From assembly GCA_021399345.1 (NCBI GenBank), contig JAAFKI010000124.1, forward strand, positions 29,521-93,520: 64,000 nucleotides of DNA, given 5' to 3'. A program made the translations under genes and the position numbers. Shown one piece after another: positions 59,211-64,000 of this stretch (the stretch's first letter is position 1; every line of letters begins with the position of its first letter). The DNA is from Candidatus Heimdallarchaeota archaeon (GTDB taxonomy: Archaea > Asgardarchaeota > Heimdallarchaeia > Heimdallarchaeales > Heimdallarchaeaceae). Below the pieces are notes generated by a model that was not told where the DNA came from, did no database searches, and saw only the letters and a program-made list of their open reading frames with translations.

Positions 59211-60125
59211 ATGAGCATAATGAGTGATATCGGTAGTGATGATTTTCCCCTATACATGTCTTCAGTCACAGTTGAAGAAACTGACAAAGCAGAAATTGTT
59301 GTAATCTATGAGGGAGATGGAACTGGAATCGATAACGTCTTACTCATAGGTAAAAATAATAACTTACCTCAAGACATATCAAAAGCAACTCTATTTGTAA
59401 AAGAAGATAAAACAGGGAGAGCAGCATATAAAATTGTATTTCCTATTTGGGAAGATGGTTCCTTTCAAGCAGTAGTTGAAAAGGAAGGAAAATACATCTA
59501 CGAGCCAGGTGAAGCTCATAACATAGTCTTCCGTGGTCGAGGAGTATTTCTTGATCTTCGTAAAATTTTCCACTTATCAAAAGAGATAGAGAAAACAAAG
59601 AAAAAAACTAAGAAGAAAGAGAAAATAGTTATCGAGGAATCCACTCCAGAAGAAACTGAAGTAAAGCAGACTGAACCTCCAGCTTATGATGATTACAACA
59701 TGTTATCTCTCAAACCAAAAAATTTCAGAATTTTTGGACCTGAACTTAAGGGTAATTTAATTCAATTACTTGACTATCTTGAAAATGAGAAAAGTCAAGC
59801 AATGATCTTCGATAATGTTATCCTTCCAGATCTGGCTAGGTCACTGAAAATCTGTATAAATGAGGAACTAAGGGCGTCAGTTTATGATGTCTGTTTTCCA
59901 GCAATTATATTCATCGAAAAAGCATTGATTCTTAGTAATATGATCCATAACCAATTAGAGAAAGAGGAATCAAAAGAGAGATACAAAAGAGAGGTTGTAG
60001 ATAAAATCTCAGAAGTTAGAAAGACCATACAAATAACAGAATTTCATCGCTCTACAGATTTAATAAAACGAGACTATGATGATGATATTCATGCTCTGAA
60101 AATGCGGTTTTACGAGGAAATTTAA
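59211..60125 (+). CDS. Hypothetical two-domain protein (beta-rich N-domain, K-rich linker, helical C-domain)
   Basis: 304-aa ORF with coding-like composition. Linker KEIEKTKKKTKKKEKIVIEESTPEETE. No motif recognised. Confidence 0.55.
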   Translation: MSIMSDIGSDDFPLYMSSVTVEETDKAEIVVIYEGDGTGIDNVLLIGKNNNLPQDISKATLFVKEDKTGRAAYKIVFPIWEDGSFQAVVEKEGKYIYEPGEAHNIVFRGRGVFLDLRKIFHLSKEIEKTKKKTKKKEKIVIEESTPEETEVKQTEPPAYDDYNMLSLKPKNFRIFGPELKGNLIQLLDYLENEKSQAMIFDNVILPDLARSLKICINEELRASVYDVCFPAIIFIEKALILSNMIHNQLEKEESKERYKREVVDKISEVRKTIQITEFHRSTDLIKRDYDDDIHALKMRFYEEI

Positions 60126-61243
60126 TCCGTGTTTTGAATATTAATTTTTGTCAATTTATATTGATGATATGCAATTAGAACCTTTATATAACCACTTCTT
60201 ATATCCGGAATATCTATTGGCGAATCAAGATCTAACTCCAGTTGATCTATAGTCTCTAGTTTTTGTTCTGAAGAGATGATTACAAATTTGGTGCTTTTAG
60301 CATTTATTAAAACTCTAGAACTTATTTGTTGATTCCCACGTCCCAAAAGAAAACCTTGACCTCCGATAGGTGTTAGTATAATAGTAATATCTTTCCCTTT
60401 TGTAAATTCATATAACGATGCTTCGTTAATATCTCTATTCACTATCTTTCCATTCTCAAAGAGATCTACACCTAACAGGGTTTTCTCTACATTCATCGCT
60501 TTCATCACGTGATAAACAGTACTTCCTGTTCCTAGAACAACTATTCCATCATTAATTGAATGCTCTTCCTTAAGCTCGAGTGCCATTACTTCGTATGTTT
60601 CTACAGAAGTTACTGATGATGAGATCTTTCCTCCCTGTATTAATCCAGTTTTCTGAGGAACCATTAAATGACCGAATAGAGTGGCGTGTACTTTATTTTC
60701 TCTAAATAATGCCTCATTCACATCCATAACATCTTCAGCAGTTATTACTAGCTCATCAGCAACTAGGTCAACCATGATTTCACCTAAGTCTTGAGGATGA
60801 TAGAGAAAACATCCACTAAACATTTTTACTCCAGAAGGAATTCCCAAAGTAGGTATTTTATCAGCGATTACAGATGCAACGTCTCTAGCTGTTCCATCAC
60901 CACCTACAAAGAGTATTAAATCGACCTCATTTTCTAGAAAGATTTTGCATGCCTTTTGGGTATCTTGAGCGGCAGTTCTATCTTCAGAAGGAGTGTAAAT
61001 CAAAACTTTCTCGAAAGGATACTCTTCCAATATTTCTGCCCCCATTGGATCATCACAGTGATAAAAAATAAGAGGTAACGAGGAGGATAATGAGGAGAGT
61101 GCTTTTTTCACTCTTTCAAAGGAATATTTCTCCCCACCTTCAAAATACTCCCATGCATCTTCAATTAAATCAGTTCCTTTCCAGCCTTTCTTTCCACCTA
61201 TTCCTGCAATAGGATTAACTAGAAAACCTATTTTAAATGACAC
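60122..61243 (-). CDS. ATP-NAD kinase-like protein (NADK/DAGK fold, COG3199-like)
   Basis: FLVNPIAGIGG N-terminus and LILFVGGDGTARDV (GGDG motif). Length about 370 aa. Confidence 0.65.
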   Translation of the reverse strand: MSFKIGFLVNPIAGIGGKKGWKGTDLIEDAWEYFEGGEKYSFERVKKALSSLSSSLPLIFYHCDDPMGAEILEEYPFEKVLIYTPSEDRTAAQDTQKACKIFLENEVDLILFVGGDGTARDVASVIADKIPTLGIPSGVKMFSGCFLYHPQDLGEIMVDLVADELVITAEDVMDVNEALFRENKVHATLFGHLMVPQKTGLIQGGKISSSVTSVETYEVMALELKEEHSINDGIVVLGTGSTVYHVMKAMNVEKTLLGVDLFENGKIVNRDINEASLYEFTKGKDITIILTPIGGQGFLLGRGNQQISSRVLINAKSTKFVIISSEQKLETIDQLELDLDSPIDIPDIRSGYIKVLIAYHQYKLTKINIQNTD

Positions 61244-61311: not shown

Positions 61312-61866
61312 TCATTTATCTTCTTCATCTTTCTTAATTTTCTTAATCCCCAAGTATTGGAAAACAGAGGCTATTAAGGGTGATACAAGCTGCATCCAGA
61401 AGACCGTATAACCATAAGGTAGATTCCGATTTAAGTGTATGAGGAGATCATTAGACATTGTGCCAAGAACAGAATCTGTTAGCAGAGGTTCAGGTATTTG
61501 AAACACTAGATCAACAGAGAACTGGGTTAAAGGCAGGATTGCAGCTAGTACTATGAGCATAGTAATTAAAGGCAATATGAAAGTATAGAGCTCTTTGGGT
61601 TGTCTATAAGTTAGATAAACAAGGTTTCCAAAGAATAGTAAAGCTCCCAATACAAAGATTAATCCTATAATTAGTGTTAAAGTTAAAGTTGGTTGAAGAT
61701 CATACAAATAATCATTCAAACTAGTTACTTTGAATTGTTTAAGATGAGAATATAGCTTGAAGTAATGAATTATGTCTATAGCAAAAAGGAAAGATGTTAA
61801 AAGCCAGAATATGGCAGATGTTATTCCATAAATATTTTTGGAGAAGATTCTATAATCATACTTCAT
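61312..61866 (-). CDS. Small membrane protein (about 4 TM helices); unknown
   Basis: Helices GITSAIFWLLTSFLFAIDII, LTLIIGLIFVLGALLFFGNLVY, ILPLITMLIVLAAILPL and WMQLVSPLIASVF. ATGA overlap with the upstream gene. Confidence 0.6.
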   Translation of the reverse strand: MKYDYRIFSKNIYGITSAIFWLLTSFLFAIDIIHYFKLYSHLKQFKVTSLNDYLYDLQPTLTLTLIIGLIFVLGALLFFGNLVYLTYRQPKELYTFILPLITMLIVLAAILPLTQFSVDLVFQIPEPLLTDSVLGTMSNDLLIHLNRNLPYGYTVFWMQLVSPLIASVFQYLGIKKIKKDEEDK

Positions 61867-62261
61867 TTTTCTTTACCCCCAGTTTCAGTAGTTGATCTTT
61901 TCTTAACTGGAAAATACATATTTAGTATCTTGCCTATAGATAGTTCTTTCCCCAATTTTTTCTCAATGATTTTCACATGAAGTTGATATGTTATAAATAA
62001 ACCAGCTATAATTACGAAATAAGCTAGTACGGAAAAAGCTGGATCAATAGATAAAGCAGTAGGGTCTGCATCTAAAAAAAACATTGGATAACCAAACATT
62101 GAAACAATCCAAATAATTCCCCACATACTGAAGTTCAATATGAATCCACGAAATGTCCATTCTCCAATAATTGCTGTGAAGAGAAAAGTTAGGATAAAGG
62201 CAATTAAAACATAAGCAGAACCATAGATCAACAACAGATGCCTTTTTTTAAATTCAGTCAC
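61863..62261 (-). CDS. Small membrane protein (3-4 TM helices); unknown
   Basis: Helices LLLIYGSAYVLIAFILTFLFTAII, GFILNFSMWGIIWIVSMFGY and FSVLAYFVIIAGLFITY. First gene of a three-gene minus-strand unit. Confidence 0.6.
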   Translation of the reverse strand: MTEFKKRHLLLIYGSAYVLIAFILTFLFTAIIGEWTFRGFILNFSMWGIIWIVSMFGYPMFFLDADPTALSIDPAFSVLAYFVIIAGLFITYQLHVKIIEKKLGKELSIGKILNMYFPVKKRSTTETGGKEK

Positions 62262-62724
62262 AAACTAAAGAAAGATGAGACGGTTTTAAGTTTAACTGAA
62301 TTACATAAAACAATTAGAAAAAAATAATTTAATACAGTAGAGCATTTTCTGCTACAGAGTTTTGATTATATCACATTTTTTTCTTTTGAAAAACGCAAAA
62401 AAGCCAAAGTGTGATATATAAATCTATCTTTTTTTGCATCTTATTGCACTTTTTTGAGAAAACTATTTAAGTGAAAATGCCCTAATATTACTACTAGAAC
62501 ATTAGAAACGGGTAAATTCACAGTTTTTACCGATAATGTTGTATACGTATAAGCGATACGTAGAAAAGTGTCCAAAACCCCGTAAGAAAGCCGTTTTGAA
62601 CCTCCCAAAACTTTATAAGGGTCAACGTTAGGAAACAGTATCGCTAACAAAATTCGACTCTTAGACGAGCTCTAAAGAGTAAGACAACCATTCCAAGTGG
62701 TTGAACATCAAAAAGGTGTAAAAA

Positions 62725-62997
62725 ATGAAAAGACGAAAACTTCCACGCGGTGGAGAAGACATAATTAAAGTCTTAGATGTAAGCGGCCCTATGACTCAGA
62801 AGCAAATCCTTGGGTCAGTAAGCCAACCCGAAAGGACTGTCCGTTACGGTATTAGAAGGTTGCTTGAGAAAGGAATCCTTAAGAAAATGTCCAATTTATC
62901 AGATATGCGTAGTGTATTTTATTACTTGGATCCTGCAATACGTGACAACTTTGAGTTTCTCGTTGGAGAAACAGTTCAAGTTAGTCAAACAGCTTAA
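62725..62997 (+). CDS. Small winged-helix DNA-binding protein
   Basis: 90 aa: IIKVLDVSGPMTQKQILGSVSQPERTVRYGIRRLLEKGILKK...VFYYL. AGGTG lies 8 nt upstream of the ATG. Confidence 0.75.
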   Translation: MKRRKLPRGGEDIIKVLDVSGPMTQKQILGSVSQPERTVRYGIRRLLEKGILKKMSNLSDMRSVFYYLDPAIRDNFEFLVGETVQVSQTA

Positions 62998-63039
62998 GTT
63001 TATGCTGGAGTCTTAGGCTCCGTAAATATAGGGAGTGTG

Positions 63040-63063
63040 AGAGGGTTTTTCCCTCTTTTTTTT
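63040..63063 (+). terminator. Hairpin plus T-tract terminator after the wHTH gene
   Basis: agaggg-ttttt-ccctct followed by seven T. It is preceded by a second small hairpin, ggagtc-tta-ggctcc, at 63007-63021. Confidence 0.6.
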
Positions 63064-63129
63064 CTATTGTTTTCTTTTAATCCCATTCAACACAAATTAT
63101 ATTAATCTTGTAAACTTTTCTTAGCTGTA

Positions 63130-63441
63130 ATGACCACTATTTCCCCTCCCGATGAGATTGACAATTTGCATAACGTGGCTTTATGGATGCGCTCTACAGT
63201 ACAAGCTTATCAAGAAGGTATAATTAATCGCAAACTCACTTCAGGAATGGCAAAAAAAGTTCTAAGAAAAATAAAGAGCTATTTACCAACACAACAAGAA
63301 AAAGAACACAAAGAAGCCATTGAAGATCTCTGTATCTCTCTAAGTACTATTGACAGAGCAGAAGGTAGTTTTGAGAAGTTTTATTTAGATAGTCTCATAG
63401 AGGATATGGAAAAAGTAGCTAAACTACTAAAAGAGGAGTAA
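63130..63441 (+). CDS. Hypothetical all-helical 103-aa protein, start-stop coupled to the downstream small GTPase
   Basis: Its stop TAA (63439-63441) is 1 nt before the GTPase ATG (63443), and its last codons contain the GTPase RBS (aaagaggag). No motif recognised. Confidence 0.6.
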   Translation: MTTISPPDEIDNLHNVALWMRSTVQAYQEGIINRKLTSGMAKKVLRKIKSYLPTQQEKEHKEAIEDLCISLSTIDRAEGSFEKFYLDSLIEDMEKVAKLLKEE

Positions 63442-63442
63442 A

Positions 63443-63979
63443 ATGACCAAAATTCAACCAGATTACAACTACAAAATCCTATTATTAGGATCCGCAGCTG
63501 TTGGTAAAACAAGCTTAGTACAACGATTTGTTCACGACAGATTTGATGGCTCCTACCTTATGACTATCGGCATGGAACCGTCTGAAAAACATATAGATTT
63601 AGAAGATGGAACAAGGGTTGCTCTTTCTATCTGGGATTTAGCAGGGCAAGAAAGGTTTCGTTTTATTCGACATACATTCTATAAAGGGGCAAGAGCAGCA
63701 TTATTAGTTTATGATTTAACAAGAGCTGCAACTCTCAAAGATGTTCAAAAGTGGGAAAAAGAATTTGTAGATAACTGTGGTAAAAATGTAATCAAAGTTC
63801 TTGTTGGTAATAAAGAAGATTTAAAAAATCAAATTGCTGTTTCAAAAAAAGAGTACGAGGCAGTTCACACAAAAATAAAAAGTCACTATAGCATCAGAAC
63901 AAGTGCATTAACTGGAAATCAAGTAGAAGAAGCTTTTACTAACATTGCACAATTATTAGTCAACCAATCAAAAAAATAA
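63443..63979 (+). CDS. Rab/Ras-like small GTPase (eukaryote-like; no C-terminal Cys prenylation motif)
   Basis: G1 LLGSAAVGKTSL, switch I YLMTIGMEP, G3 WDLAGQERF, a Rab-like YKGARAALLVYDLT, G4 VGNKEDL and G5 RTSALTG. It ends ...LLVNQSKK. Confidence 0.88.
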   Translation: MTKIQPDYNYKILLLGSAAVGKTSLVQRFVHDRFDGSYLMTIGMEPSEKHIDLEDGTRVALSIWDLAGQERFRFIRHTFYKGARAALLVYDLTRAATLKDVQKWEKEFVDNCGKNVIKVLVGNKEDLKNQIAVSKKEYEAVHTKIKSHYSIRTSALTGNQVEEAFTNIAQLLVNQSKK

Positions 63980-64000
63980 AATTAATTTTTTTCTGTTTCT

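Follow-up and report, generated by a model that had tools for sequence, protein, structure and literature searches.

Rab-, Ras- and Arf-like GTPases number in the dozens in Asgard archaea, and almost none of them can be matched to a regulator. In the MglB-MglA system mglB precedes mglA in one operon, and adjacent gene pairs that are conserved in prokaryotes often encode interacting proteins. Asgard genomes also contain GTPases to which a small roadblock or longin domain is fused as partner. Genome layout rarely helps in the search for regulators, and the GTPases of MK-D1 are generally not encoded in operons with them (PMC10933270, Discussion). The C-terminus of a Thorarchaeota Rab, Thor-Rab (7EZB), is truncated and Cys-less, and its switch I residue R37 was likened by the authors to the intrinsic finger of MglA (PMC10933270, Tran et al. 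2024). Here we describe a locus of a Candidatus Heimdallarchaeota archaeon (assembly GCA_021399345.1, contig JAAFKI010000124.1) at which the gene for a Rab-like GTPase directly follows that for a 103-aa protein, p103, which may well be its dedicated partner. The likeness to MglB-MglA is that a small gene stands immediately upstream of a Ras-superfamily GTPase, candidate partner first and GTPase second. p103 differs from both kinds of system in being all-helical rather than alpha/beta and in having no Pfam match.

The source genome comprises 3.27 Mb in 199 contigs and is 88.6% complete, and the window, by which we mean the whole 64,000-nt stretch that was analysed, is contig C55:29521-93520. 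It was compared with a family set of 31 Heimdallarchaeaceae genomes from 5 genera, the source genome included. In all of them (31/31 loci) the next gene downstream of p103, and in the same direction, is the orthologous GTPase gene, with gaps of between -8 and +27 nt. In the window p103 occupies 63130-63441 (+), its stop codon TAA 63439-63441, and after one spacer A at 63442 the GTPase gene runs from its ATG at 63443 to 63979 (+). This gap of +1 nt, which a previous sequence-only reading of the window had pointed out and which we confirmed in both coordinates and strings, is found at 14 loci; 8 loci have a gap of -8 nt (an ATGAGTAA/G overlap), 2 a gap of +4 nt, 5 a gap of +12 or +13 nt, and single loci have gaps of +21 nt and +27 nt. 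The same reading had held the two genes to be tightly coupled, and the junction is indeed close or overlapping in all 31 loci. We conclude that the arrangement of p103 and the GTPase gene is beyond chance and that, since the synonymous divergence of distant pairs is greater than 1, their linkage has been maintained by selection.

It had also been proposed that the ribosome-binding site of the GTPase gene lies in the last codons of p103. This stands for the window, where a Shine-Dalgarno (SD)-like GAGGAG is present at 63433-63438 (+), 4 nt before the GTPase ATG; as a statement about the family it falls short, because only at 20/31 loci do the 20 nt ahead of the GTPase ATG contain an SD-like match of at least 4 nt to the consensus AGGAGGTGATC (at least 5 nt in 12/31). 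The consensus used is the general one rather than one derived from the host 16S rRNA, and a search of the assembly for the 16S 3' end gave no convincing rRNA copy. Before the p103 ATG an SD-like match is seen at 1/31 loci.

The sequence-only reading had missed three features: a conserved promoter, the second orphan gene p206 and the restriction of the module to one family. The promoter is represented by the octamer TATATTAA, a TATA box that in the window occupies 63098-63105 (+), 24 nt before the p103 ATG, and that lies 22-25 nt upstream of this ATG in 31/31 loci against a genome background of 0.037 per kb per strand. In archaea the centre of a TATA box lies some 26-27 nt ahead of the point where transcription begins, and the distance of TATATTAA from the ATG would thus put that point on the p103 ATG or no more than a few nt away and give a leaderless mRNA; the position of the octamer also confirms the p103 start codon. 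There is no promoter-like gap before the GTPase gene, and its downstream neighbour is convergent, so the p103-GTPase unit should be a bicistron. Taken together, the predicted start and the gene order imply that the p103-GTPase mRNA is leaderless and bicistronic. Four RNA runs were available as contig sets, in which depth and ends mean little. One contig piece from an RNA library lies on p103 (63150-63307, with 7 other letters) and may represent DNA carry-over; no contig in the four sets bridges p103 and the GTPase gene.

That p103 is a real gene is clear from its distribution and its constraint. One intact copy is present per genome in 31/31 family genomes, with identity down to 35-37% in a six-frame search, and relatives are found in AB_125 and in Ca. 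Heimdallarchaeum aukensis and Ca. Heimdallarchaeum endolithica, the genomes of the latter two being closed. A six-frame search of 30 other genomes of the class Heimdallarchaeia gave only one marginal match, E 0.005, with stops. When a profile built from the 31 sequences was run against 400 Asgard genomes (31 of the family and 369 outside it), it matched 31/31 in the family and 0/369 outside. Against 1.84 billion representative proteins the profile gave 8 matches, seven of which are family members or fragments; the eighth, a repetitive 636-aa secreted-type protein, we judged spurious. No fused form of p103 was among these 8 matches, no search aimed at longer proteins having been made. In a collection of 5.8 billion proteins there were 48 matches, all of them unnamed or 'hypothetical protein' entries in Heimdall records and none with a Pfam domain. 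The median dN/dS (ratio of non-synonymous to synonymous substitution rates) is 0.28 for p103 (101 pairs) and 0.08 for the GTPase (74 pairs), and p103 is thus under purifying selection. Nine residues are invariant among the 31 sequences (K35, D66, L67, S70, T73, R76, F81, S88 and L89), and these positions concentrate in a conserved block, DLCISLSTIDRAxGxFEKFYLxSL, that contains R76.

The GTPase has 178 aa and matches Pfam Ras (PF00071) with 158.4 bits against a cut-off of 21.6 (E 1.5e-46). Its translation contains every one of the Rab/Ras-type strings quoted earlier from the DNA (TIG, WDLAGQERF, YKGARAALLVYDLT, GNKEDL and TSA), and the G motifs GSAAVGKT, T41, DLAGQ, NKED and TSAL are invariant in the 31 orthologs, as is characteristic of the Ras superfamily. 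Likewise, the observation that it has no C-terminal Cys for prenylation is correct: the protein ends in ...LLVNQSKK, lacks the Cys motif of Rab geranylgeranylation, and has C112, an internal residue, as its sole Cys. The closest solved structure is that of Thor-Rab (E 3.9e-40 with the single sequence and 1.7e-46 with a profile), followed by Rab11, Rab43 and Rab1. The G motifs, the short C-terminus and the missing prenylatable Cys are common to Thor-Rab and this GTPase. The two differ in switch I, where Thor-Rab has R37 and the GTPase Met40 ('ykrtig' and 'ylmtig', respectively, in the HMMER alignment), and no partner gene is described for Thor-Rab. The catalytic Gln69 is retained. With eukaryotic Rab11, Rab1 and Rab43 the GTPase shares WDxAGQERF, YxGA and LVYDxT-like stretches; it differs from them in having no C-terminal Cys or hypervariable tail, and in reading TIGMEP rather than TIGVEF in switch I and beta2. 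Rabs as a family are defined by the RabF1-F5 motifs. The GTPase is Rab-like, which does not imply orthology to a particular eukaryotic Rab, the tree described below being limited to Asgard sequences.

The p103-linked GTPase is one paralog among 35 Ras-family matches in the source genome. A quick maximum-likelihood tree was built from 71 Asgard sequences, comprising the 31 linked GTPases, the best match from each of 20 of the 52 class genomes outside the family, and 20 of the 34 other Ras-family matches of the source genome; two paralogs truncated at the edge of a contig were left out, as were the 12 matches that scored weakest, and there were no eukaryotic sequences. In this tree the linked GTPases form one clade, with a support of 98 in the Shimodaira-Hasegawa-like approximate likelihood-ratio test (SH-aLRT), within a subfamily whose members share TxGMEP in switch I. 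The closest relatives outside (f3, f5, f6 and f7) join the clade at a support of only 83-84, and one paralog from the source genome (C163:24823-25353) groups with f2, f3 and f4 matches. No p103-like open reading frame (ORF) was present at any of the 20 outside GTPase loci examined, and the distribution of p103 is exactly that of the linked GTPase clade. From its restriction to the family and its absence at these 20 loci it follows that p103 came into being when the Heimdallarchaeaceae originated, or else changed at that point so far that its relatives can no longer be recognised.

In another Heimdallarchaeia family, f6, the GTPase of the 'GMEP' subfamily is preceded on the same strand and at a distance of about 20-30 nt by an 83-aa CxxC...CxxC ORF, in 10/10 loci examined. 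This ORF is 56-100% identical across loci L059-L068 (for example L067:2199-2450 (+)), is unrelated to p103, and has weak zinc-ribbon Pfam matches that fall below cut-off. We conclude that the small upstream partners of GMEP-type GTPases vary between families.

Two other Ras-family paralogs of the source genome also follow closely on an ORF without a Pfam match. At C41:41964-43420 (L081) this is a coiled-coil-rich ORF of 228 aa with a 1-nt overlap, and at C41:179663-181103 (L082) an ORF of 282 aa with a 4-nt gap. GTPase partners that lack annotation may be frequent in this genome. When p103 was compared by hhalign with p206 and with three ORFs tightly upstream of Ras-family paralogs in its own genome, all probabilities were at most 0.5%.

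The sequence-only reading had described the partner as purely helical, as unlike the roadblock/LC7 and longin types and as belonging to no known family, and all of this agrees with what we found. An AlphaFold2 model made from the 31-row alignment has a mean predicted local distance difference test score (pLDDT) of 88.8 and a predicted template modelling score (pTM) of 0.82, and consists of four long helices and one of 4 residues (13-28, 34-50, 55-72, the short 74-77, and 82-102), with no strand. From these helix limits the conserved block runs from the last part of helix 3 through the connector into the first part of helix 4. There is no match to roadblock, longin or any other Pfam family at E up to 1, none to an NCBIfam or PADLOC family, and among the PHROGs nothing beyond E 0.022 and 0.043. 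A Foldseek search of the PDB with the model gave no match at E <= 0.001; in the wide VIA-align search, in which helical bundles need a Z of about 13 or more to be informative, the best match had Z 9.9 (a designed cage) and the others were generic bundles. In the ESM Atlas the top score was 0.77, with unnamed clusters only. A search of the literature (full-text, by title and abstract start) returned no paper on a helical partner of an Asgard Rab-like GTPase; the supplementary trees and tables of PMC10933270, which lie outside that scope, may classify Heimdall GTPases.

Two further identities were considered for p103 and rejected. Weak profile matches to yeast Vps28 chains (E 0.035-0.048) were accompanied by no Pfam VPS28 match, and hhalign of p103 with the Vps28-domain protein of its own genome gave a probability of 0.9% over 20 columns, in a register that differs from that of the PDB matches. 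A TBC-domain RabGAP is likewise rejected, as there is no Pfam match (E up to 1) and 103 aa is too small for a domain of about 200 aa or more with its Arg and Gln fingers. We conclude that p103 is neither a roadblock, longin, TBC nor Vps28 protein. The Vps28-domain protein itself (L079, C123:67403-70969) is a 482-aa ORF in which a long N-terminal region precedes a C-terminal VPS28 domain (E 5e-11), so that a fused protein of the ESCRT-I type may be encoded; it is flanked by ORFs of 241 aa and 193 aa on the same strand.

With moderate confidence we take p103 to be a dedicated binding partner of the GTPase, because their linkage is unbroken over saturated synonymous divergence, their phyletic histories match and the p103 model has a single conserved surface patch. 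In the scheme we propose, the conserved TATA box would drive a leaderless bicistronic mRNA from which p103 is translated first; the ribosome would stop at the TAA and restart 1 nt downstream on the GTPase ATG. Elsewhere in the family the two genes overlap in ATGAGTAA. Through the shared mRNA and this restart, p103 and the GTPase would be made together. p103 would then bind the GTPase in a role akin to that of MglB for MglA, probably through the corner of helix 3 and helix 4 (D66...R76...F81...L89), which is its one strongly conserved surface. As to the step controlled, p103 could be a GTPase-activating protein (GAP) or co-GAP that supplies the invariant Arg76, or it could connect the GTP form, as effector or adaptor, with the co-distributed neighbour p206; to each of these we give a minor share of the probability, and what is left goes to a guanine nucleotide exchange factor (GEF) or a stabiliser. 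The GAP option would fit a GTPase that keeps Gln69 but has Met at the position where Thor-Rab and MglA have an intrinsic Arg.

Several observations weigh against a dedicated partnership. There is no SD-like motif before the GTPase ATG in 11/31 loci, and p103 evolves 3-4 times faster than the GTPase. The four-helix bundle is a generic fold, and the top structural matches of the model are designed bundles and unrelated proteins with Z < 10. The closest outside relatives of the GTPase work without p103, which is therefore not essential to this type of GTPase. In addition, the invariant residues S70, T73, S88 and R76 could be purely structural, and p103 could serve p206 or the product of the upstream gene, which encodes a winged helix-turn-helix (wHTH) protein, instead of the GTPase.

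The gene p206 encodes a 206-aa orphan. It is convergent with the GTPase gene, and its 3' end, of which the last 16 nt lie in the window, is at 63985-64000 (-); the gene starts at window-equivalent 64602, and its full span is C55:93505-94122. It is present in 31/31 family genomes and in 0/52 other class genomes, the same distribution as p103, and adjoins the p103-GTPase pair in 31/31 loci, tail-to-tail with the GTPase gene in 29/31. In the two Ca. Heimdallarchaeum genomes it is found between the wHTH gene and p103, on the p103 strand; a further instance is at L001:2758-3378 (-). The N-terminus is very conserved (Q-R-I-A-R-I-I-E-L-P-I-P...HHKE), as is an acidic tail, PPERPLL...FDDE. No consistent Pfam family was found among the 31 members, no PDB sequence match below E 0.24 and no Foldseek match at E <= 0.001. 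The N-terminus has the look of a ribbon-helix-helix protein, an identity for which the Pfam, PDB and Foldseek searches gave no support. We conclude that the locus is a Heimdallarchaeaceae-specific module that has one Rab-like GTPase paralog at its centre and a second orphan at its flank.

One alternative assigns p103 to the output side of this module, as an effector or adaptor that binds the GTP form of the GTPase and bridges to p206, whose N-terminal domain, coiled-coil hairpin and PPERPLL...FDDE tail would constitute the output. Small helical modules are the usual interfaces of Rab and Arf effectors, and the identical phyletic patterns of p206 and p103 and the adjacency of p206 in 31/31 loci speak for such an arrangement. 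On the other hand, p206 is a separate and mostly convergent transcription unit, and its model, with two N-terminal helices, a long helical hairpin and the tail, is poor (pLDDT 66.7, pTM 0.21). We regard this explanation as rather unlikely.

A second alternative makes p103 a minimal arginine-finger GAP, in which Arg76, in the turn between helices 3 and 4, enters the active site and complements Gln69. R76 is invariant (31/31), lies in the most conserved block and stands at a helix-loop junction, while the GTPase has Q69 but no intrinsic arginine in switch I; four-helix-bundle GAP domains with an arginine finger do occur in bacterial effectors. Neither the fold nor the sequence of p103 matches a GAP family, however. 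Bundles of the ExoS/YopE/SptP type do not appear in the match lists of Foldseek and VIA-align, which does not exclude a family that is missing from those lists. A catalytic GAP does not need coupled synthesis, and the P-loop (GSAAVGKT) has Ala at the position of Ras G12, a substitution that in Ras hinders a finger of the RasGAP type. We consider this reading doubtful.

That the coupling amounts to co-expression only, with p103 a lineage-specific protein that has a job of its own, was born or inserted before the GTPase gene and now supplies its promoter, would agree with the lack of p103 homologs outside the family, the related GTPases elsewhere without p103 and a constraint on p103 weaker than that on the GTPase, but is improbable given that at 31/31 loci the pair has stayed together in one arrangement while the wHTH gene and p206 have moved, and that a tight or overlapping junction has been maintained in all 31.

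Upstream of p103, at 62725-62997 (+), is the wHTH gene, whose 90-aa product has Pfam HTH_24 and MarR matches below the cut-offs (E 0.002). It is a member of a multi-copy family with about 5 copies per Heimdallarchaeaceae genome and present in 82 of the 83 class genomes searched, those of the family included. Between it and p103 is a terminator-like hairpin, AGAGGG / TTTTT / CCCTCT (63040-63056), followed by seven T (in all 63040-63063, +); the 81-nt region around it folds with -24.6 kcal/mol (z = -3.15), and 2/200 shuffles fold as well. T-runs of at least 5 are located 33-140 nt upstream of the p103 ATG in 29/31 loci. The wHTH gene had previously been called independent of the pair. The hairpin and T-run between the genes and the separate p103 promoter in 31/31 loci argue for this, and by these sequence signals the wHTH gene is a separate transcription unit; the claim has to be qualified in that the gene is syntenic, since at 24/31 loci an ortholog precedes p103 by less than 300 nt. 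In 4 others the distance is 0.75-1.8 kb, and in the remaining 3, for which 389-2000 nt were available, no ortholog was seen; for two of these, whole-genome matches put it kilobases away.

Contigs from all four RNA runs cover the wHTH gene, again with DNA carry-over possible. The ends of three contigs fall at 63031-63037, a little short of the hairpin, and as ends in contig sets they carry little meaning; contigs of two runs start at 62655 and 62663, some 65 nt ahead of the wHTH start codon. The spacer ahead of the wHTH gene (62262-62724, about 460 nt) is unusually long and gene-poor, with a doubtful 69-aa ORF on the minus strand (62441-62650) as its sole ORF. An Rfam search of 61800-64000 gave RT-11 (62606-62705) as the sole match, which with 20.5 bits, where the gathering score is 143.5, is noise. 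Further upstream, a 373-aa ATP-NAD kinase with the N- and C-terminal Pfam NAD_kinase domains is encoded at 60122-61243 (-), and beside it lie two small ORFs for multi-pass membrane proteins, 61312-61866 and 61863-62261, which have 4 nt in common and match no Pfam family.

The module is confined to the Heimdallarchaeaceae and was not found in the other Asgard genomes searched, so what it can inform is the diversification of GTPase circuits in archaea rather than, directly, the eukaryotic ancestor. A bolder proposal, which at present we think unlikely, is that p103 represents a new, lineage-born class of small-GTPase regulator, a bundle of about 100 aa acting as an Arg76-finger GAP or an exchange factor, with p206 as the downstream effector. 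If p103 does modulate the nucleotide cycle, the few folds known among small-GTPase regulators would be joined by a new one, and the locus would show how such regulators come to be recruited de novo; if p103 is a regulator and p206 an effector, the locus would provide the first matched GTPase-regulator-effector set that can be read from a Heimdallarchaeia genome. One paralog is locked to a specific partner gene in every genome of the family, and this gives a defined pair, or a trio with p206, for expression and assay. The Heimdall group is among the closest archaeal relatives of eukaryotes, and the locus would offer within it a rare switch-and-partner pair that is directly testable.

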